Part shown: one piece after another, positions 4,137-10,417 of the stretch
How positions within the stretch are numbered: the stretch's first letter is position 1
Layout: each line of letters opens with the position of its first letter
Origin: Betaproteobacteria bacterium
GTDB taxonomy: Bacteria; Pseudomonadota; Gammaproteobacteria; Burkholderiales; Casimicrobiaceae
Length of the DNA stretch: 64,000 nucleotides
NCBI GenBank assembly: GCA_013298765.1
Contig: JAAFJA010000007.1
Location: 1 to 64,000 of the forward strand
Direction: 5' to 3'
Notes under the pieces: generated by a model
Seen by the model: only the letters and a program-made list of their open reading frames with translations
What the model was told of the DNA's origin: nothing
Databases searched by the model: none
Translations under genes and position numbers: made by a program

Positions 4137-5765
4137 TCAAATGGCAATAGCGTTGAAACTCAACCCAAACCGCGCCAAATACTTGCGCAACCGATCCGCG
4201 TCGTTCACTTCGCTTCGCTCTTCGCGCGAGACGTTGTAGAGCTTGCGACCCGCATCCGAGAGCGTGCGGCTTTGTTTGCACACGCGAATTACCGCTTCGA
4301 GTTGCAGGCGATCGAAGAGATCGAGTTTTGCGAGTGCGGCTTCGTCGACATAGCGTTCGAGCTCGACGCTTTGCGCGTTGCTCGTCGATGCGTCTTTCGC
4401 CCAAAGCCATTTGAGCCGCTCGATTTCCGCATCGACCACGGCCTCGGTGATGCGCCCGCCGTCGGCGAGTGTGGCCATGCGAGTCACACTTGCGGATAGA
4501 TCACGAAAATTGCCTCTCCACGCGCCATTTACACCGGACGCGAAGCTCATATAACGCTTTTTCGCTTCTACATTGAATCGAGCCTGTTGCCCGATATCTT
4601 TTGGGCTAAGTGACAATAGGTAATCTACGTTCGGCTCAATGTCTTCGGGTCGCTCGGCAAGGCCGGGCAAGGTGTAACTCCAGAGATTGATCCGCGCGAA
4701 CAAATCCTCTCGAAACTCGCCGCGCGCGACCGCATCGCGCAGATCGAGATTGGTGCCTGCGATCAACTGGAAATCGCTCGCAACTTCTTTGTCTGCACCG
4801 ACTGGATAGAAGCGTTTGTCTTCAATCGCTTTGAGCAGCATCGCTTGTTCATCAAGCCCGAGCGTGCCGATCTCATCGAGAAAGAGCACGCCTTTGTCAG
4901 CGCTGCGAAGCAAGCCCGCGCGATCGGCCATCGCGCCCGTGAACGCGCCCTTTTTGTGACCGAACAAGGTGGACGCGGCGCCGTCGCCCATGAGCGTTGC
5001 GCAATTCACTTCAACGAATTCGCCAGTGACGTTGTGTCGCTCTTTCTTCAATTCGTAAATGCGCTTCGCGAGGAAACTTTTCCCCGCGCCGGTGGGGCCG
5101 GTCAGCAACACTGGCGCACTTGATCGCAGCGCCACGTGTTCAATCTCATCGATCAAGGCGTTGAAGCGTTTGTTCTTCGTTGCGATGCCGCTTTTCAAGT
5201 AGCGCTTCGCATCGTCCGTCGCGATCGCAAAGCGTTTCGCAATCGCGTCATAGCGCGAAAGATCAAGATCGATCAGCGCATAGCTGCCCGGATCGCCTTC
5301 GCGCTGCGGGCGTGGCGGCGCGGTTTGCAGGAGCACACCCGGTAGCACGCGCGCCTCTGCAAGCAAGAACAAACAAATCTGCGCGACGTGCGTGCCCGTC
5401 GTGATGTGAATCCAATAATCCGATTGCTCCGGATCAAGCTTCTGCGCATGCGCCCAATCAAAGAGCGCGCCATACATCTCACCGAAATCCCAAGGATCGC
5501 GCACGGGCAGCGCATGCAAGGTGACGCGCGTATCCGGGCTCACGAGCGCGATGTCTGCCACCACTTGCTCCGCAATCCGCTCATGCCCCGGCGAATGCAA
5601 CAGCTCAATCGCATCAATCGCGACATCTTCGTGCTGCACGATAGAAATGGTCGGCCGCCACTTTTGCCAACGACCACGACCGCCGCCTGCATCAAGCTGC
5701 GAGCCTAGGAAGCCGATGACGGTGGTGGGTTTGGTGGTTGGTTGTGACACTCTTTGCTGCTCCAT
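4137..5765 (-). CDS. rtcR: sigma54-dependent transcriptional activator RtcR (CARF-like N-terminal domain + AAA+ domain + C-terminal HTH)
   Basis: Collinear with E. coli RtcR throughout (WRPT, HITTGTHVAQIC, IDLDLSRY, GPTGAGKSF, GAFTGA, FLDEIG, ATWRGNFRELSASVTRMAT, NDADRLRKYLARFGL). The start was chosen at MEQQRV (5765). An alternative upstream ATG lies at 5798. Confidence 0.9.
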   Translation of the reverse strand: MEQQRVSQPTTKPTTVIGFLGSQLDAGGGRGRWQKWRPTISIVQHEDVAIDAIELLHSPGHERIAEQVVADIALVSPDTRVTLHALPVRDPWDFGEMYGALFDWAHAQKLDPEQSDYWIHITTGTHVAQICLFLLAEARVLPGVLLQTAPPRPQREGDPGSYALIDLDLSRYDAIAKRFAIATDDAKRYLKSGIATKNKRFNALIDEIEHVALRSSAPVLLTGPTGAGKSFLAKRIYELKKERHNVTGEFVEVNCATLMGDGAASTLFGHKKGAFTGAMADRAGLLRSADKGVLFLDEIGTLGLDEQAMLLKAIEDKRFYPVGADKEVASDFQLIAGTNLDLRDAVARGEFREDLFARINLWSYTLPGLAERPEDIEPNVDYLLSLSPKDIGQQARFNVEAKKRYMSFASGVNGAWRGNFRDLSASVTRMATLADGGRITEAVVDAEIERLKWLWAKDASTSNAQSVELERYVDEAALAKLDLFDRLQLEAVIRVCKQSRTLSDAGRKLYNVSREERSEVNDADRLRKYLARFGLSFNAIAI

Positions 5766-5815
5766 GCTCCCTCTAGTGCTGGGTTCCTTGCACCACACCT
5801 CAATCTGTCATCCCC

Positions 5816-5914
5816 GCGGAGGCGGGGACCCAGACCGAGACGGTCGAGAAACTACGATCATTTGATCAACAGCAATCTGCCCGGTCTGGGTTCCCGCCTT
5901 CGCGGGAATGACGA
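5816..5914. repeat. inverted-repeat pair of GC-rich palindromic units (tgtcatccccgcggaggcggggacccagaccg / cggtctgggttcccgccttcgcgggaatgacg)
   Basis: Arms of 32 nt at 5816-5847 and 5882-5914 are reverse complements with 3-4 mismatches. Each arm is itself palindromic (CCCGCG..GCGGG). The pair lies in the rtcR / rtc-operon divergent intergenic region. Confidence 0.75.
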
Positions 5915-6064
5915 CAGCGGGTTAGCTATTTTGCTATTGAACGTGCTTTCAAGCTAGTTGCGCAGTGAATTGACTCACGTGCGGCGCCAGCAAACGTGAG
6001 CAAATCAGAAAAGTAATTAAATAAATCAATGGTTTACGGTTGGCAGCCGCTGCGATACACGATC

Positions 6065-6080
6065 TGGCACGCTCGCTGCA
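6065..6080 (+). promoter_or_regulatory. sigma54 (RpoN) -24/-12 promoter for the RtcR-controlled operon
   Basis: The sequence is cTGGCACgctcgcTGCAa. The GG sits at 6066-6067 and the GC at 6078-6079, giving the canonical 12-nt spacing. It matches TGGCACG-N4-TTGCW apart from a single T-to-C change. It lies about 300 nt upstream of the divergent rtcR and points toward the SPFH-ankyrin-rtcB genes. Confidence 0.75.
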
Positions 6081-6091
6081 ATAAGAAAAGC

Positions 6092-6655
6092 GTCAAACAG
6101 AAAACATGATGCGCTTACAGGTTCTAGGGGTTTGCTCCCCACCGGTGCGCGATGCCTCGAATGGTTCGAGTTGCGTGTTGCGTATGCCGCCGCATGTGGA
6201 CTGCTTGATATGAAGTTCTCTTGGTGACAGCGGCAACGCTGTTGGGTTCGATTCCCTTGAATTTCTCCTTTTGGATAGCTCAATCGGCAGAGCAATCGAC
6301 CACGAATCGATATGTAGCGGGTTCGAATCCCGTTCCAAAACCTGGCCTGAAACGCCATGATGAAACCCGAGCCGCAAGGCTCACCGCCGAATGCAGATCG
6401 GCAACGCGGACAACGAAGCATCGAAACACGAAAGCGAATCGATGCTGCGGTGGAAGCGAAGGCGATTTGTCAGCCCGCGCGCTCTGCGATATGCGAGAGG
6501 CGAGGACGAACGGCACGGCAGCGTTGTTAGTAACGCGTTCGATGCAGTTTGATCGAACGCGAAGCAAGCGACAACACCGTTGCTCAACGTTCAACGCAAG
6601 CGAATCCCGCGAGCGGACTGTAACGGCAACACTCACGAATAAAGAAAGAACAACA
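6092..6655 (+). ncRNA. structured 5' leader / candidate ncRNA region between the sigma54 promoter and the first CDS
   Basis: About 560 nt with no convincing CDS. The overlapping ORF translation is low-complexity and R/T-rich. The region contains the tRNA-like element and several perfect hairpins (GCATCGA..TCGATGC at 6419-6446; CGTTCGAT..ATCGAACG at 6536-6559). Confidence 0.4.
6269..6341 (+). tRNA. tRNA-like cloverleaf, Arg(ACG)-type but atypical; a possible pseudo-tRNA or Y-RNA-like tRNA mimic in the rtc operon leader
   Basis: Manual fold. The acceptor stem TTTTGGA/TCCAAAA has 7 bp. Positions 8-9 are U8 and A9. The D-arm is GCTC-AATCGGCA-GAGC and includes GG. The anticodon stem is ATCGA/TCGAT with loop CCACGAA, so the anticodon is ACG but position 33 is C rather than U. 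The variable loop is ATGTA. The T-arm is GCGGG-TTCGAAT-CCCGT. The discriminator is C and no CCA is encoded. The AT-rich acceptor stem is anomalous for this GC-rich genome. Confidence 0.5.
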
Positions 6656-7795
6656 ATGATGAATCTAAACAAAATCAATGTGCGCAAAACCGAACGTGCA
6701 GTACTTTTGCGCAATGGCGATTTCGAGCGCGTGCTCGCGCCGGGTCAATACTGGTTTCCTACGCTCTTCGACAAGATTGTCGTGGAGCGAAAAGAGGTAG
6801 CACAGCCACTCTACATCGGCGCTGCTGCTGACTACCTGCTCGCAACGCCTACCGATTCGGCAAACGAGCACTTCGTGCGTGTTGAATTGAACGATACGCA
6901 AGCTGGCTTGTTGTACGAAAACGATTCGCTCGTCGAACTTTTGCCGCCTGCGACGCGTCGCTTGTATTGGAAGACTTCGGCAAACGTGCGCGTTGAAACC
7001 GTTGAGCTTTCGGGTGAAGGCGAGCTTGCGAAAGACTTGGTTGCAAAGATCACGCATTCGCAATTGAAGCGTCGCGCGGTTGCTGGTTTGCAAGCGGTGT
7101 TGCAAGTGCAAGTGCCGGAATACAACATCGGCTTGCTTGTGATCGACGGGAAACTTGTTCGCATGCTGGAAGCGGGTTCGTATGCGTTTTGGCGATTTAA
7201 CCGTAGCGTTACGGTGGAGTTCGTCGATTTGCGTGTGCAAGCGCTTGAAGTCACCGGTCAAGAAATCTTGACGCGAGACAAAGTGGCGCTACGACTCAAC
7301 CTGGGCGCAACGTGGCGTTATGCGGACGTGTTGAAAGCGTTCGCGATGACTGCGAAACCGTTGGATAACCTCTATCGCGAATTGCAGTTTGCATTGCGCG
7401 CCGCAGTGGGCACGCAATCGCTCGACGAGTTGCTGGAAAACAAAACGGCACTCAATGAGAAGGTTAAAGTCGCAGTGCGCGAGCGCATGGCGAGCGCAGG
7501 TATCGCGCTTGAGGCAGTGGGTGTGAAAGACATCATCCTGCCTGGCGAGATGAAAGCGATCCTCGCGCAAGTCGTAGAAGCGGAAAAAGTCGCGCAAGCC
7601 AACTTGATCCGTCGCCGCGAAGAAACCGCTGCATCGCGCTCGCTCTTGAACACAGCGAAAGTGATGGAAGACAACCCAGTGGCGCTACGCTTGAAAGAGC
7701 TAGAAACCCTGGAACGCGTCGCGGAACGCATCGACAAAATCTCCGTGTTTGGAGGTTTGGACGGTGTGTTGAACGCGTTGGCGAAAGTGAAGTAG
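6656..7795 (+). CDS. SPFH/band-7 (stomatin/flotillin-like) domain protein
   Basis: About 379 aa starting at the ATGATG after aaagaaagaacaaca. The SPFH domain is indicated by the pattern LYENDSL..RRLYW... and long coiled-coil/EA-rich helices (ILAQVVEAEKVAQANLIRRREE). No N-terminal TM segment is evident. Confidence 0.75.
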   Translation: MMNLNKINVRKTERAVLLRNGDFERVLAPGQYWFPTLFDKIVVERKEVAQPLYIGAAADYLLATPTDSANEHFVRVELNDTQAGLLYENDSLVELLPPATRRLYWKTSANVRVETVELSGEGELAKDLVAKITHSQLKRRAVAGLQAVLQVQVPEYNIGLLVIDGKLVRMLEAGSYAFWRFNRSVTVEFVDLRVQALEVTGQEILTRDKVALRLNLGATWRYADVLKAFAMTAKPLDNLYRELQFALRAAVGTQSLDELLENKTALNEKVKVAVRERMASAGIALEAVGVKDIILPGEMKAILAQVVEAEKVAQANLIRRREETAASRSLLNTAKVMEDNPVALRLKELETLERVAERIDKISVFGGLDGVLNALAKVK

Positions 7796-7937: not shown

Positions 7938-8474
7938 ATGAACGACTACGACTACATCATCAACAGCTTACAAAACGAGTCGATCACCGAATGGGAAGAG
8001 TTGGCGTTGATTGTTGACGATTTCCCCGGTGGGGTCGATTGGTGGTTGGGGCGACGTTGGATCATCAATGCAATTGATTTGTCCCCGTTGAGCGCAATCG
8101 AATGGATGCTCACGAAAGGGATAAACCTTCGATTCCGTGACGGCGAAGGCTATACGCCGTTACATTCAGCGGTAGAGCGTAGATTCGATGATCGCGTTCA
8201 AGTGATAAGTGCATTAGTGGGAGCGGGTGCAAATGTCGACGAGATTGGTCGTGAAACGACTACCCCTCTCTTATTCGCGCTCGAAATGAAGCGAAACGAG
8301 TGCGCACTTGCACTTTTGCAACTCGGCGCAAACGTCCACGTTCAAACACTGATCGATTGGTATGAATCCCCGCTCGAGTACGCGCAGCGCACGAAACATG
8401 AGCTGTTGCCTCAACTTGAAAATGCCGCTGCGCGAAAAACTCGCGAATTCGGGGCCAAAGTGAAAACAGCATGA
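7938..8474 (+). CDS. ankyrin-repeat protein
   Basis: 178 aa with three ANK-like units (GYTPLHSAVERRFDDRVQVISALVGAGANVDE; TTPLLFALEMKRNECALALLQLGANVHV). GC is about 50%, below the window background. Its stop overlaps the rtcB start (ATGA). Confidence 0.8.
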   Translation: MNDYDYIINSLQNESITEWEELALIVDDFPGGVDWWLGRRWIINAIDLSPLSAIEWMLTKGINLRFRDGEGYTPLHSAVERRFDDRVQVISALVGAGANVDEIGRETTTPLLFALEMKRNECALALLQLGANVHVQTLIDWYESPLEYAQRTKHELLPQLENAAARKTREFGAKVKTA

Positions 8475-9688
8475 AAAACTACAACGAAATCCAAACCGAA
8501 AACGTCCCGATCAAAATGTGGACGAAGGGCGTGCCTGTTGAGGACGACGCTCAGAAGCAATTGCTCAACGCTTCGAAGTTGCCGATTGTGTTTAAGCACA
8601 TCGCTGCGATGCCGGACGTGCATTTGGGGATTGGTGCGACTGTGGGCTCGGTGATTCCTACGCTGCGGGCGATCATTCCGGCGGCCGTCGGCGTGGACAT
8701 CGGTTGCGGGATGATTGCTTGCAAGACGACGTTAACCGCGAGCGACTTGCCGGATAACTTGTTGCCGCTTCGTAGCGCGATTGAGCGCTCGGTGCCGCAC
8801 GGGCGCGTGGCGATGCGCGGGAAGCGAGACACCGGCGCGTGGGACAGCCCGCCCGAGGAAGCGGATGCTGCGTGGGCGAAACTTGCATCGGGTTTTGATG
8901 AGATCACCGAGGTTGAGCCGCGCTTGAAAAACACGAACAACCGAAAGCATTTGGGAACGCTTGGAACGGGTAACCATTTCATCGAAATTTGTCTCGATGA
9001 GAAGCAGGCGGTTTGGATCATGCTGCATTCGGGTTCGCGCGGCGTGGGTAACGCGATCGGAACGCTCTACATTGAGCGCGCTCGCGAAGAAGCGATCAAG
9101 CACAACATGAATTTGCCTGACAAAGATTTGGCGTATTTCGAAGAAGGCTCGAAGTATTTCGGCGACTACGTGCGCGGCGTGAGCTGGGCGCAGCAATTCG
9201 CGAAACTAAATCGCGAAGTGATGATGCAGCGCGTGATTGCGGCGATGAAAACCGTGATCGCGAAGCCGTTTGAGACGCATCTGGAAGCGGTGAACTGTCA
9301 TCACAACTATGTGCAACGCGAAACGCATTTCGGCGAAGCCGTGTTCGTGACGCGCAAGGGCGCGGTGAGCGCAAAGGCGGGTGAACTCGGCATCATCCCG
9401 GGTTCGATGGGCGCGAAGAGCTACATCGTGCGCGGAAAAGGCAATCCGGAAAGCTTCATGTCATGCAGCCACGGCGCAGGCCGCACGATGAGTCGCACGC
9501 AAGCGAAAAAGCGCTTCACGCTCGCCGATCACATCAAAGCGACCGAAGGCGTGGAATGCCGAAAAGACGAGGATGTGATCGACGAGATTCCGATGGCGTA
9601 CAAAGACATCGACGCGGTGATGGAAGCGCAGCGGGATTTGGTGGATGTGGTTTATACGTTGAAGCAGGTGGTTTGTGTGAAGGGGTGA
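8471..9688 (+). CDS. rtcB: RNA-splicing ligase RtcB (3'-phosphate/5'-OH RNA ligase)
   Basis: 405 aa. The N-terminus ...PIKMWTKGVPVEDDAQKQLLNASKLPIVFKHIAAMPDVHLGIGATVGSVIPT is near-identical to the E. coli RtcB N-terminus. The metal-ligand and catalytic His regions (GTGNHFIE, SCSHGAGR) are conserved. Confidence 0.95.
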   Translation: MKNYNEIQTENVPIKMWTKGVPVEDDAQKQLLNASKLPIVFKHIAAMPDVHLGIGATVGSVIPTLRAIIPAAVGVDIGCGMIACKTTLTASDLPDNLLPLRSAIERSVPHGRVAMRGKRDTGAWDSPPEEADAAWAKLASGFDEITEVEPRLKNTNNRKHLGTLGTGNHFIEICLDEKQAVWIMLHSGSRGVGNAIGTLYIERAREEAIKHNMNLPDKDLAYFEEGSKYFGDYVRGVSWAQQFAKLNREVMMQRVIAAMKTVIAKPFETHLEAVNCHHNYVQRETHFGEAVFVTRKGAVSAKAGELGIIPGSMGAKSYIVRGKGNPESFMSCSHGAGRTMSRTQAKKRFTLADHIKATEGVECRKDEDVIDEIPMAYKDIDAVMEAQRDLVDVVYTLKQVVCVKG

Positions 9689-9691
9689 GGG

Positions 9692-10417
9692 ATGCAAGTA
9701 GATATCAATGCGCGCTATACGGACTTAGTGGTTCGCTCGGAGCGGACGTGGCAGGAAGCATTGCTATTGTTTGACCGACTGAATCGAAATAGAGAAGTAC
9801 TGAGCAGAATCGAGGAAGATGAACTAAGGAGTAATCCACCTCCTATTCATTTCATGCGAAAGCGAAAAAGCGAGTGGCGCGACGAAGCTATCGCGGCAAA
9901 CGCGGAGAGGCTACTTGAGATTGCATCGCGAACCGCATTGGTTTTCGGGCACTCCGCGTTGGACGCAGCACTAAACGATTTTCTGTGTTTTTGTGCGACC
10001 CTCGACGGCAGCGCTTTCGATTTTCATGTTCAGGAGCGAAAATTGCCCGCGAAGGAATTTCTTTCTAAGAGTGGTTCAGAACTCAGAGCAGCGCTTATTG
10101 ACCGATTCCTGAAAGAATCCTCAAGAGAACCAATTTTGAAAAGAATTTCGATACTTTTGTCGATTTGCAAGCCAACGGCTCAGCATTTCAGCGATGTTGT
10201 CTACCCAGAGTTTGTCTACGAGCAATCGCGAGTGGAGCAAATCGACCATTTGCGGCATCAGGTGATTCACCGAGGCGCGATACCAAGCATTAACTACGAT
10301 GACACGCTTTATCTTTACATGATCACACGCTTGGTCTATCGCGTAGTTACCTCGCTGCGCCCGGTCACATTCGATTTAGATCTTGCGATAAGAACCTCCA
10401 CTAACCTGAAGAGCTAG
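9692..10417 (+). CDS. hypothetical protein, low-GC, occupying the position where RtcA is normally found; possible HEPN-like Rx4H motif
   Basis: 241-aa ORF. Its start lies 4 nt after the rtcB stop, with no intervening intergenic region. GC is about 42-48%. No recognisable RtcA motifs are present. The C-terminal region has LRHQVIHRG, an R-x4-H pattern. It is predicted alpha-helical. Confidence 0.55.
   Translation: MQVDINARYTDLVVRSERTWQEALLLFDRLNRNREVLSRIEEDELRSNPPPIHFMRKRKSEWRDEAIAANAERLLEIASRTALVFGHSALDAALNDFLCFCATLDGSAFDFHVQERKLPAKEFLSKSGSELRAALIDRFLKESSREPILKRISILLSICKPTAQHFSDVVYPEFVYEQSRVEQIDHLRHQVIHRGAIPSINYDDTLYLYMITRLVYRVVTSLRPVTFDLDLAIRTSTNLKS

Follow-up and report, generated by a model that had tools for sequence, protein, structure and literature searches.

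A b7a-type tRNA-like element, very probably without a decoding role, in the structured leader RNA of an RtcR-linked Band-7-RtcB operon

Why should an operon encoding an RNA ligase carry what looks like a complete tRNA in its leader? The question is raised by a 64-kb stretch of DNA from a Betaproteobacteria bacterium (contig JAAFJA010000007.1; this whole stretch is referred to here as the window, and all positions are window coordinates). In the window, a 73-nucleotide (nt) cloverleaf lies on the plus strand at 6269 to 6341, between a divergent rtcR gene and genes encoding a Band-7 protein, an ankyrin-repeat protein, and the RNA ligase RtcB. The original prediction, made from the DNA letters alone, suggested that the cloverleaf may be a tRNA-like RNA encoded within the leader of an RtcR/sigma54-controlled RtcB operon, acting as sensor, decoy, or substrate for the repair system, or else a pseudo-tRNA. 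Comparative analysis bore out the reading as a tRNA mimic rather than an ordinary tRNA, and the element is very probably a non-decoding member of the b7a family of tRNA-like RNAs.

The features first described for the 73-nt cloverleaf were all recovered from the sequence, by ARAGORN, by Rfam, and by minimum free energy (MFE) folding. ARAGORN reported a single tRNA in the 64 kb, at 6269 to 6342 on the plus strand, and labeled it Arg(ACG). The Rfam tRNA model RF00005, the first of the database checks that had been proposed, covered 6269 to 6341 from end to end (model positions 1 to 71) at 57.9 bits, well over its gathering threshold of 29 and with an E value of 6.7e-10 when all 64 kb are searched, and the MFE fold of the 73 nt was exactly the cloverleaf (-20.7 kcal/mol; z = -2.3). 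The acceptor stem (UUUUGGA/UCCAAAA) has 7 bp, the outer four of which include no G-C pair. U8 is present, and the D-loop, AAUCGGCA, contains G18, G19, and C20. A 5-bp anticodon stem (AUCGA/UCGAU) closes the loop CCACGAA (C32-C33-A-C-G-A37-A38), and the T arm (GCGGG-UUCGAAU-CCCGU) is followed by discriminator base C73 and then by CUGG, with no CCA encoded. The three deviations from genuine tRNAs that had been singled out, i.e., the A/U-rich acceptor, C33, and the missing CCA, are all present in the sequence; the genome had been called GC rich, but the local GC content is merely about 0.48 to 0.60. At the gathering thresholds and at E ≤ 10, the window leader matched nothing in Rfam but tRNA.

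Related loci were obtained by scanning a genome collection, from which the 80 closest Band-7 loci (L001 to L080) were kept; nearly all are from Burkholderiales, and more than 8,000 homologues of the window Band-7 protein exist. The nearest loci, from a Betaproteobacteria metagenome-assembled genome and a Casimicrobium sp., are 83% identical to the window in Band-7, 83 to 90% in RtcR, and 90 to 93% in RtcB. The Xanthomonadales framing of the original prediction was not upheld, since the closest relatives in the collection are Burkholderiales. A pattern search identified b7a copies in 67 loci, and a covariance model built from those copies (R1) added 8 more. The tRNA-like element was present in 75 of the 77 loci with upstream DNA long enough to assess it, always on the same strand and 206 to 392 nt upstream of the Band-7 start; in the window it lies 315 nt upstream of the Band-7 open reading frame (ORF), and R1 scored the window copy at 75.3 bits (E = 4.5e-25). 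The element was undetected in L005 and L080, the sole two loci lacking it despite ample upstream DNA. The tRNA-like RNA, Band-7, and RtcB form a core common to RtcR-linked and RtcR-less loci, in which Band-7 is invariable and RtcB is usual.

Covariation was tested on 66 distinct b7a copies, with shuffles and slid pairing partners as controls. The D stem was invariant, pairing in the anticodon stem reached 98%, each of its five pairs showing compensatory changes, and in the T stem it was 100%, with such changes at three of five pairs. Paired cells amounted to 87%, compared to 73% in the shuffles and 35 to 43% when partners were slid, and there were 194 compensatory cells versus 64 in the shuffles. 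These results indicated that the core of the cloverleaf is conserved and covaries in orthologous loci, as the proposed comparative check had asked. The acceptor behaved differently from that core: its inner four pairs are kept throughout the family, whereas the outer three are unpaired in 41 to 50 of the 66 copies, and therefore the perfect 7-bp acceptor of the window copy is unusual. CCA is unencoded in most copies, and RF00005 aligns many of them only locally (model positions 3 to 68 or 5 to 66), with scores of 31 to 58 bits. As side observations, L005 has kept RtcR, and its T-loop match is only a remnant; in three Variovorax loci the main element has a degenerate D arm, and the b7a model gives an additional weak match, of about 18 bits, on the downstream side of Band-7 (L066, 5342 to 5409; L073, 5385 to 5405; L074, 5376 to 5396).

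If the element decoded, its anticodon should be held constant, and it is not. Among the 46 copies with a 7-nt loop, 20 different triplets occupy positions 34 to 36. The frame of the loop is kept (C32 in 38, U33 in 39, and A38 in 40 of the 46 copies), whereas positions 34 to 36 vary freely, close relatives included; position 37 is a pyrimidine (C37) in 11 of 46, and the window copy is one of four with C33. L001 and L002, the two nearest orthologues, whose bodies are near-identical to that of the window copy, carry CGT (loop CUCGUAA) and TGT (loop CUUGUAA), respectively. In at least 13 copies a GAAA or GCAA tetraloop replaces the anticodon loop; these copies are mostly RtcR-linked (Acidovorax, Delftia, Burkholderia, and relatives) and represent about half of the RtcR-linked loci, and 7-nt loops predominate in loci without RtcR. 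ARAGORN gives orthologous copies the labels Thr, Lys, Phe, Ile, Val, Met, Asn, Ala, Glu, Cys, Arg, Pro, or none, and many of the 7-nt loops are exactly equal to real Ile, Thr, or Met loops. Since the triplet is unconstrained, the Arg(ACG) label is an accident, and the identity initially assigned to the element is meaningless. When, as a check for diversifying selection on the anticodon, loop changes were set against identity at four-fold sites of the Band-7 gene, third positions were compositionally saturated, with identities of 0.65 to 0.85 everywhere.

The same data bear on whether this is simply a working tRNA-Arg(ACG) gene of the usual kind, placed by chance in the rtc intergenic region. 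Such a gene would explain the high ARAGORN and RF00005 scores and the full 7-bp acceptor of the window copy; CCA can be added posttranscriptionally, and the Pseudomonas aeruginosa homologue is annotated as tRNA-Arg and is expressed (PMC13637947). However, genuine tRNA-Arg(ACG) genes of related Burkholderiales have a G/C-rich acceptor, U33, A20, A or G at position 73, and an encoded CCA, and the window copy has none of these. A20 and A/G73 are the identity elements of arginyl-tRNA synthetase (PMC13637947); the window copy has C20 and C73, and the tRNA-Arg(ACG) genes in the tRNA arrays of some related loci (described below) have GGA(U) in the D-loop and A/G73. A canonical tRNA-Arg(ACG) loop joins U33 to a purine at 37, and here position 33 is C. 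Moreover, orthologues of the same body carry Thr or many other anticodons or a tetraloop, C73 runs into CUGG instead of CCA, and the acceptor, A/U rich in the window, is lost in most relatives down to the 4 bp kept in the family. An ordinary tRNA is therefore a very improbable explanation. A functionless, decaying pseudo-tRNA would account for the departures from tRNA rules, and the mini tRNA-like module next to the window copy (TL1, described below) is partly degenerate as well, with U.U pairs and its CCA lost. Yet a fixed position in 75 of 77 loci, invariant D- and T-loops, and compensatory stem changes across Burkholderiales refute decay, and we give that reading almost no credence.

An element of this kind has been described before. 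According to the discussion in a bioRxiv preprint on the structure of YrlA (10.1101/312249), Burroughs and Aravind predicted in 2016 that a "b7a-tRNA" (Band-7-associated tRNA) accompanies Band-7 and RtcB genes, and the window element is of this b7a-tRNA class, already in the literature: it shares with the class, as described there, a near-authentic tRNA fold, adjacency to Band-7 on the same strand, linkage to RtcB, and homology to the tRNA-like elements of other Band-7-RtcB loci, and no feature contradicting the assignment was found. That account also considers b7a-tRNA functionally redundant or parallel with YrlA. In P. aeruginosa, PA4581.1 ("tRNA-Arg4") lies between rtcR (PA4581) and the divergent PA4582-PA4585 rtc cluster (PMC13637947, 2026); it has neither CCA nor A20, and its level by quantitative reverse transcription-PCR was about half that of canonical tRNAs (PMC13637947). 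The PA14 counterpart of PA4582 is the SPFH protein PaFlo8, encoded in the rtc locus (PMC13086221). PA4581.1 resembles the window copy in its position between rtcR and the SPFH-rtcB genes, its tRNA-Arg label, and its lack of CCA and A20; it differs in having G73 and G20 (C73 and C20 in the window) and in belonging to another bacterial class. The cluster beside it runs PA4582 (SPFH)-rtcB-rtcA. Judging from gene context, we infer that PA4581.1 is homologous to the window element.

The original prediction had also raised the possibility of a Y-RNA-like module. YrlA is a tRNA mimic that is modified by tRNA enzymes and has the permuted order T arm, closed acceptor stem-loop, and D arm (PMC4201824). 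YrlA and YrlB (RF02553) resemble b7a in being tRNA-mimic noncoding RNAs inside RtcR-controlled RtcB operons and in their mimicry of the D and T arms. In contrast to YrlA, which is permuted and has its Ro60-binding stem at the anticodon position, b7a has the normal tRNA order and a real anticodon stem, and the protein partner is an SPFH protein for b7a and Ro60 for YrlA. The YrlA model, proposed as a second Rfam check, gave no match at E ≤ 10 at 5800 to 6800 or 6200 to 6350, and no Ro60/TROVE gene was present among the operon genes (Band-7, ankyrin, RtcB, and a 241-amino-acid [aa] ORF), which were the genes covered by the TROVE scan. What remains of the suggestion is the positional role that YrlA/YrlB have in rsr-rtcBA operons; the likeness to the YrlA model and a Ro60 gene in the operon do not. 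In L079, the T arm of TL1 together with the D arm of b7a gave a weak YrlA match (22.3 bits versus a threshold of 69; E = 0.03).

The next question is how the element is transcribed. The gene context of an RtcR-dependent operon was confirmed by Pfam, which identified rtcR at 4137 to 5798 on the minus strand (PF06956, the CARF-type RtcR domain, 3.4e-76; PF00158, sigma54-interaction AAA+, 3e-49) and then Band-7, ankyrin, and RtcB genes on the plus strand; RtcR, 60 to 90% identical, occupies the same divergent position in more than 30 related loci. A sigma54 promoter lies at 6065 to 6083 on the plus strand (TGGCACG-N4-CTGCAATA; -24 GG at 6066 to 6067 and -12 GC at 6078 to 6079), the -24/-12 element of which reads CTGGCACG-N4-CTGCAATA. 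In 25 RtcR-linked loci, its TGGCACG and TGCAAT are at least 90% conserved, and its distance from the tRNA-like element is constant at about 203 to 218 nt. The cloverleaf had been placed some 180 nt downstream of the promoter on the same strand; it begins about 178 nt from the expected transcription start, in agreement with that figure. A simple scan of 5700 to 6800 found no sigma70-like promoter or intrinsic terminator.

Moreover, the tRNA-like element is only one part of a much larger RNA. In both RtcR-linked and RtcR-less loci, essentially everything between the transcription start and the Band-7 start codon, about 565 nt, is conserved RNA, and RNAalifold (30 loci for the domains, 28 for the full leader) resolved four domains in it, namely D1, TL1, b7a, and D4. 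D1 (6092 to 6209, plus strand) begins at about the predicted transcription start and is a closed multi-helix domain resembling a three-way junction, with compensatory changes at 20 of its 30 pairs in the 30-locus alignment. It contains a stem of 12 to 15 bp (GGUGCgcg.../...cgcGCAUGCC) that is rich in compensatory changes, and its closing helix is AUC-GCCGU/ACGGC-GAU in the 28-locus fold, the equivalent in the MFE fold of the window being GUCAA.CAG/CUG.UUGAU. Pairing of the invariant CACAGG of D1 with a D4 CCUGU was considered and dropped, because RNAalifold gives CAGG a local partner and there is no covariation among the variants.

TL1 (6212 to 6268, plus strand), directly upstream of b7a, is a mini tRNA-like module without a D arm. 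It consists of the acceptor GAAGUUC/GAAUUUC, an 8-nt linker, the GNRA hairpin ACAGCG-GCAA-CGCUGU, the T arm (U)GGG-UUCGAUU-CCC(U), and U-CC(U), and its MFE fold is the mini-tRNA fold (-18.5 kcal/mol; z = -2.15). In relatives the T-loop GGGTTCGAnTCCC and the T arm GGGUUCGAnUCCC are invariant. Acceptor and CCA were counted in 62 loci, with swapped acceptor strands as the control: all seven acceptor pairs form in 35 of the 62, made from 48 different heptamers, compared to 13% in the swapped controls, and N-CCA is encoded in about 45 of 62, abutting b7a directly. The window TL1 has a degenerate UCCU in place of NCCA and two U.U pairs in the T stem, and its only Rfam match is a weak, tRNA-Sec-like one (15 bits). 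TL1 of L079 matched the Rfam mascRNA-menRNA family at 31.4 bits (E = 2e-4), below threshold. TL1 shares with mascRNA/MEN-beta (RF01684) the 7-bp acceptor, the diminished D region, the shortness of the "anticodon" hairpin, the T arm followed by CCA, and the location inside a longer transcript; unlike TL1, mascRNA belongs to a eukaryotic family, so that the likeness would be convergent or generic, and the window TL1 gives no match to it.

Downstream of b7a, the window fold includes a hairpin UGGC-CUGAAAC-GCCA (6343 to 6357, plus strand) and a GNRA hairpin GAGCC-GCAA-GGCUC (6369 to 6382, plus strand). The latter is GGUC-GAAA-GACC in most relatives, with compensatory changes in the 30-locus alignment and 100% pairing in the 28-locus one. 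D4 (6386 to 6627, plus strand) then forms a long, irregular helical rod closed by invariant GCCG (6386 to 6389) and CGGC (6624 to 6627), a closing helix that the window MFE fold recovers (-99.3 kcal/mol; z = -3.24). Helix A4 of D4 (columns 77 to 82/149 to 154) shows 10 to 13 compensatory sequences per pair, and the 28-locus fold shows a 13-bp CAGC.../...GCUG helix and further helices with many pair types. No Rfam family matched D1 or D4. The conserved motifs of D4 are CGCCGAAyG, UCAGC, and GCUGUAACGGCA, the last about 35 nt before the start codon. GCCGAAUG (GCCGAATG), at 6386 to 6393 in the base of D4, corresponds to a near-invariant CGCCGAAyG that about 90% of loci share, and relatives additionally carry GTCGAAAG in the hairpin preceding D4. 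CGCCGAAyG fits GNCGAAN0-1G, which Chen et al. (2014; PMC4201824) linked to Ro60 binding in YrlA/YrlB; as an 8-nt motif it falls short of proving a relationship, and it is located in D4 rather than in the tRNA-like element. When viral contigs were scanned for the D4 motif GGTCGMAAGACC-N1-6-GCCGRAYG, six contigs were found, and ARAGORN detected a tRNA in none of the six. The scan gave no evidence of a phage-borne module: the best R1 result was two identical weak plus-strand matches (10.3 bits; E = 0.077), and with the D4 motif on the minus strand these were ascribed to chance.

The protein encoded directly behind this leader (6656 to 7795, plus strand) is a Band-7/SPFH protein of 379 aa, slipin/stomatin-like, with a Pfam PF01145 match at residues 152 to 323 (4e-31) and no membrane segment or hydrophobic anchor. 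In its AF2 model (pLDDT, 75; pTM, 0.48), two all-beta repeats make up roughly the first 150 aa and precede the SPFH domain and long C-terminal helices. Foldseek matched the model to stomatin, HflK/C, and prohibitin at 1e-13 to 1e-10 and aligned major vault protein over 426 to 476 columns (repeats, shoulder, and cap helix), which exceeds the SPFH domain alone. By sequence profile against the Protein Data Bank, only stomatin was matched, at residues 163 to 363. SPFH proteins assemble into rings and cages. The vault particle has a shoulder of SPFH type, small RNAs, and a TROVE protein that is a relative of Ro60; because vaults join these three, a parallel between Ro60/Y-RNA and Band-7/b7a is plausible by analogy. 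The vault particle (major vault protein, vault RNA, and the TROVE protein TEP1) resembles the modeled Band-7 protein in its SPFH-like shoulder, the beta repeats before it, the long helix after it, and the small structured RNAs. However, the sequence likeness to major vault protein is limited to SPFH, and Band-7, known here from its gene and a model, is far smaller.

What, then, might the RNA do? The best overall explanation, which taken as a whole we hold to be somewhat better than a balanced choice, joins two claims: that the element is a non-decoding member of the b7a family, which is very probable, and that it serves as a cofactor or scaffold of a Band-7 assembly acting with RtcB, which by itself we rate at somewhat less than even odds. 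In this model, b7a descends from a class I tRNA. It has kept the D and T arms, the variable loop, and the anticodon stem, and with these the L-shape and elbow, but the features of a decoder are gone: the anticodon is not fixed, the window copy has no U33, synthetase identity bases and CCA are missing, and in most copies the acceptor is incomplete. Transcription would start from the RtcR-activated sigma54 promoter, with b7a as the third of four leader domains ahead of Band-7, ankyrin, and RtcB. Either processed or within the whole leader, b7a could then act as RNA cofactor or scaffold of a soluble, stomatin-like or vault-like Band-7 oligomer. The tRNA fold may lend the RNA stability and provide a tRNA-shaped handle that unites tRNA-binding factors, broken tRNAs, and RtcB, so that Band-7/b7a would be the counterpart of Ro60 with YrlA/YrlB in rsr-yrlBA-rtcBA operons. 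Several points weigh against this proposal. The window copy is atypical in its 7-bp acceptor and C33, and its behavior may differ from that of the family. The resemblance to major vault protein is suggested by a medium-confidence model and low TM-scores. As of 2018, b7a-tRNA was experimentally unvalidated, according to 10.1101/312249. Finally, the level of PA4581.1 RNA was unchanged on induction of the Rtc proteins (PMC13637947), and simple co-induction from the operon promoter therefore fits poorly.

Two rivals to the cofactor model accept the conservation of the RNA and give it other work. In one, which we consider unlikely, the leader is a cis-acting module in which the two tRNA-like folds are signals for RNase P and 3' processing (tRNA punctuation); D1, TL1, and b7a would be cut from the mRNA, the stability or translation of the Band-7-RtcB message would thereby be set, and the small RNAs would be by-products. 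TL1, with its covarying 7-bp acceptor, 5-bp T arm, and N-CCA, abuts b7a as in a tandem tRNA precursor and resembles mascRNA, a tRNA-like RNA released by RNases P and Z; in Mycobacterium smegmatis, RNase P cuts YrlA, and CCA is added to it (PMC4201824); and both the lack of a separate promoter or terminator in the leader and the conserved GCUGUAACGGCA so close to the start codon suit such a module. On the other hand, the 4-bp acceptor of most b7a copies would make a poor RNase P substrate, by the reasoning of Chen et al. (2014; PMC4201824), about 565 nt of covarying structure, a D arm that never varies, and conservation of the anticodon stem would all be superfluous in a mere cleavage signal, and the RNA is kept in loci with quite different upstream genes. 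In the other rival, b7a is a bait, decoy, or sensor: its anticodon loop would be the target of an anticodon nuclease, with a variable triplet that tracks the local threat, and cleavage would spare real tRNAs or yield 2',3'-cyclic-phosphate fragments that activate the CARF domain of RtcR. Fragments of tRNA that end in a cyclic phosphate do activate RtcR, and competitive inhibition of an anticodon nuclease has been put forward as a role of YrlA (PMC7790460); the conserved loop frame around freely varying positions 34 to 36 and the many exact copies of real Ile, Thr, and Met loops would also fit. Yet it is in the RtcR-linked loci, where a sensor would matter most, that GNRA tetraloops make up about half, and 7-nt loops dominate where RtcR is absent; the tetraloop variants thus make it doubtful that the family as a whole works through a bait in the anticodon loop. 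Moreover, the triplet variation is compatible with neutral drift, C33 of the window copy disrupts the canonical U-turn, and inducing conditions yielded no visible YrlA fragments in Salmonella (PMC7790460). We regard a bait or sensor as distinctly improbable.

A broader proposal is speculative, and we would not expect it to hold. Here the functional unit would be, in place of the 73-nt cloverleaf, the whole four-domain RNA of about 540 nt (D1, CCA-ended TL1, b7a, and D4), which is possibly undescribed as such. RNase P and 3' trimming would release tRNA-shaped small RNAs, and these, together with the rod bearing the Y-RNA-like GNCGAANG, would load into a soluble, vault-like Band-7 ring with RtcB, giving bacteria a "mini-vault" for RNA repair. 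Where RtcR is absent and the islands include arrays of 2 to 13 spare tRNA genes as well as an HNH nuclease, anticodon nucleases would be decoyed by the freely varying anticodon loop.

RtcB operons are induced by broken tRNAs, and what is at stake is how substrates are found and which roles accessory proteins and RNAs play. A tRNA mimic with a stomatin-like or vault-like protein, predicted in 2016, is the least studied accessory module of RtcB, and the window adds a clean example of b7a under RtcR/sigma54 control, with the same arrangement in P. aeruginosa (PA4581.1/PaFlo8). The 80-locus comparison indicates that the anticodon is dispensable, as the tetraloops show, and that the elbow and anticodon stem are constrained; it also indicates that b7a is accompanied by a second, CCA-ended mini-tRNA and by two more structured domains. 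Annotation pipelines label b7a elements "tRNA-Arg," "tRNA-Thr," and so on, whereby tRNA gene sets are inflated and distorted. All of this would gain greater weight if the four-domain RNA and the vault-like Band-7 particle prove to be both undescribed and functional.

About half of the related loci have no RtcR within 4 kb and carry the same RNA-Band-7-RtcB module. In these, a gene for an HNH endonuclease of about 200 aa lies upstream and ends about 25 nt before D1, and arrays of 2 to 13 canonical-scoring tRNA genes (41 to 68 bits) lie on the same strand, about 1 to 2 kb upstream of Band-7. Arrays were found in L004, L006, L007, L009, L010, L015, L019, L026 to L034, L036, L038, L056, L062, L067, L069, and L079; that of L015 comprises 13 tRNA genes at 1141 to 2819, and the window has none. 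The array and the RNA-Band-7-RtcB module together look like an island of a spare tRNA set plus tRNA repair. In some array-type loci (e.g., L036, 5186 to 6214), a gene for a ClpP/SDH-like serine protease lies 3' of Band-7, which recalls the classical pairing of stomatin with NfeD/protease. A sigma54-like motif, TGGCCGCGCGCCTGCC, that recurs at the end of the HNH gene in RtcR-less loci was rejected as a promoter, being coding sequence and at a different distance, and NtrC-type regulators upstream of the arrays in L010 and L036 look like unrelated neighbors, not parts of the module.

The remaining genes of the window operon follow Band-7 on the plus strand. The ankyrin-repeat protein (178 aa; 7938 to 8474; Pfam Ank_2/Ank) is encoded by a gene whose stop codon overlaps the rtcB start; tblastn matched it in none of the 80 related loci, the two closest included, and because of this absence the gene, from its sequence distribution, looks like a recent insertion between Band-7 and rtcB. 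RtcB (405 aa; 8471 to 9688; Pfam PF01139, 2.4e-129) is 66 to 93% identical to its counterparts, which are downstream of Band-7 in most of the 80 loci. The 241-aa ORF (9692 to 10417, plus strand) begins 4 nt past the rtcB stop codon, and its membership in the operon is uncertain; it had no match in Pfam, NCBIfam, or PADLOC, and its equation with a 247-aa ORF that precedes rtcB in other loci was rejected, the two being unrelated. The operon is without an RtcA cyclase gene.

Several further sequences lie upstream of the leader. An IHF-like site, AATCAA-TGGT-TTA (AATCAATGGTTTA), is predicted at 6024 to 6036 on the plus strand, between the upstream region and the sigma54 promoter; its ATCAA core is invariant across the aligned RtcR-linked loci, and it agrees with the IHF consensus, WATCAANNNNTTR. 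A dyad-like block (CTAGC...CTAGTT) within 5940 to 6036, upstream of the sigma54 promoter, is conserved in RtcR-linked relatives and is a candidate RtcR site. Just upstream of the rtcR start codon, an inverted repeat (5807 to 5912) with 31-nt arms, 90% complementary and separated by a 44-nt spacer, produced spurious mir-789/mir-423 Rfam matches at 5806 to 5916. It occurs once in the window and could be a regulatory hairpin of rtcR or a small mobile element.

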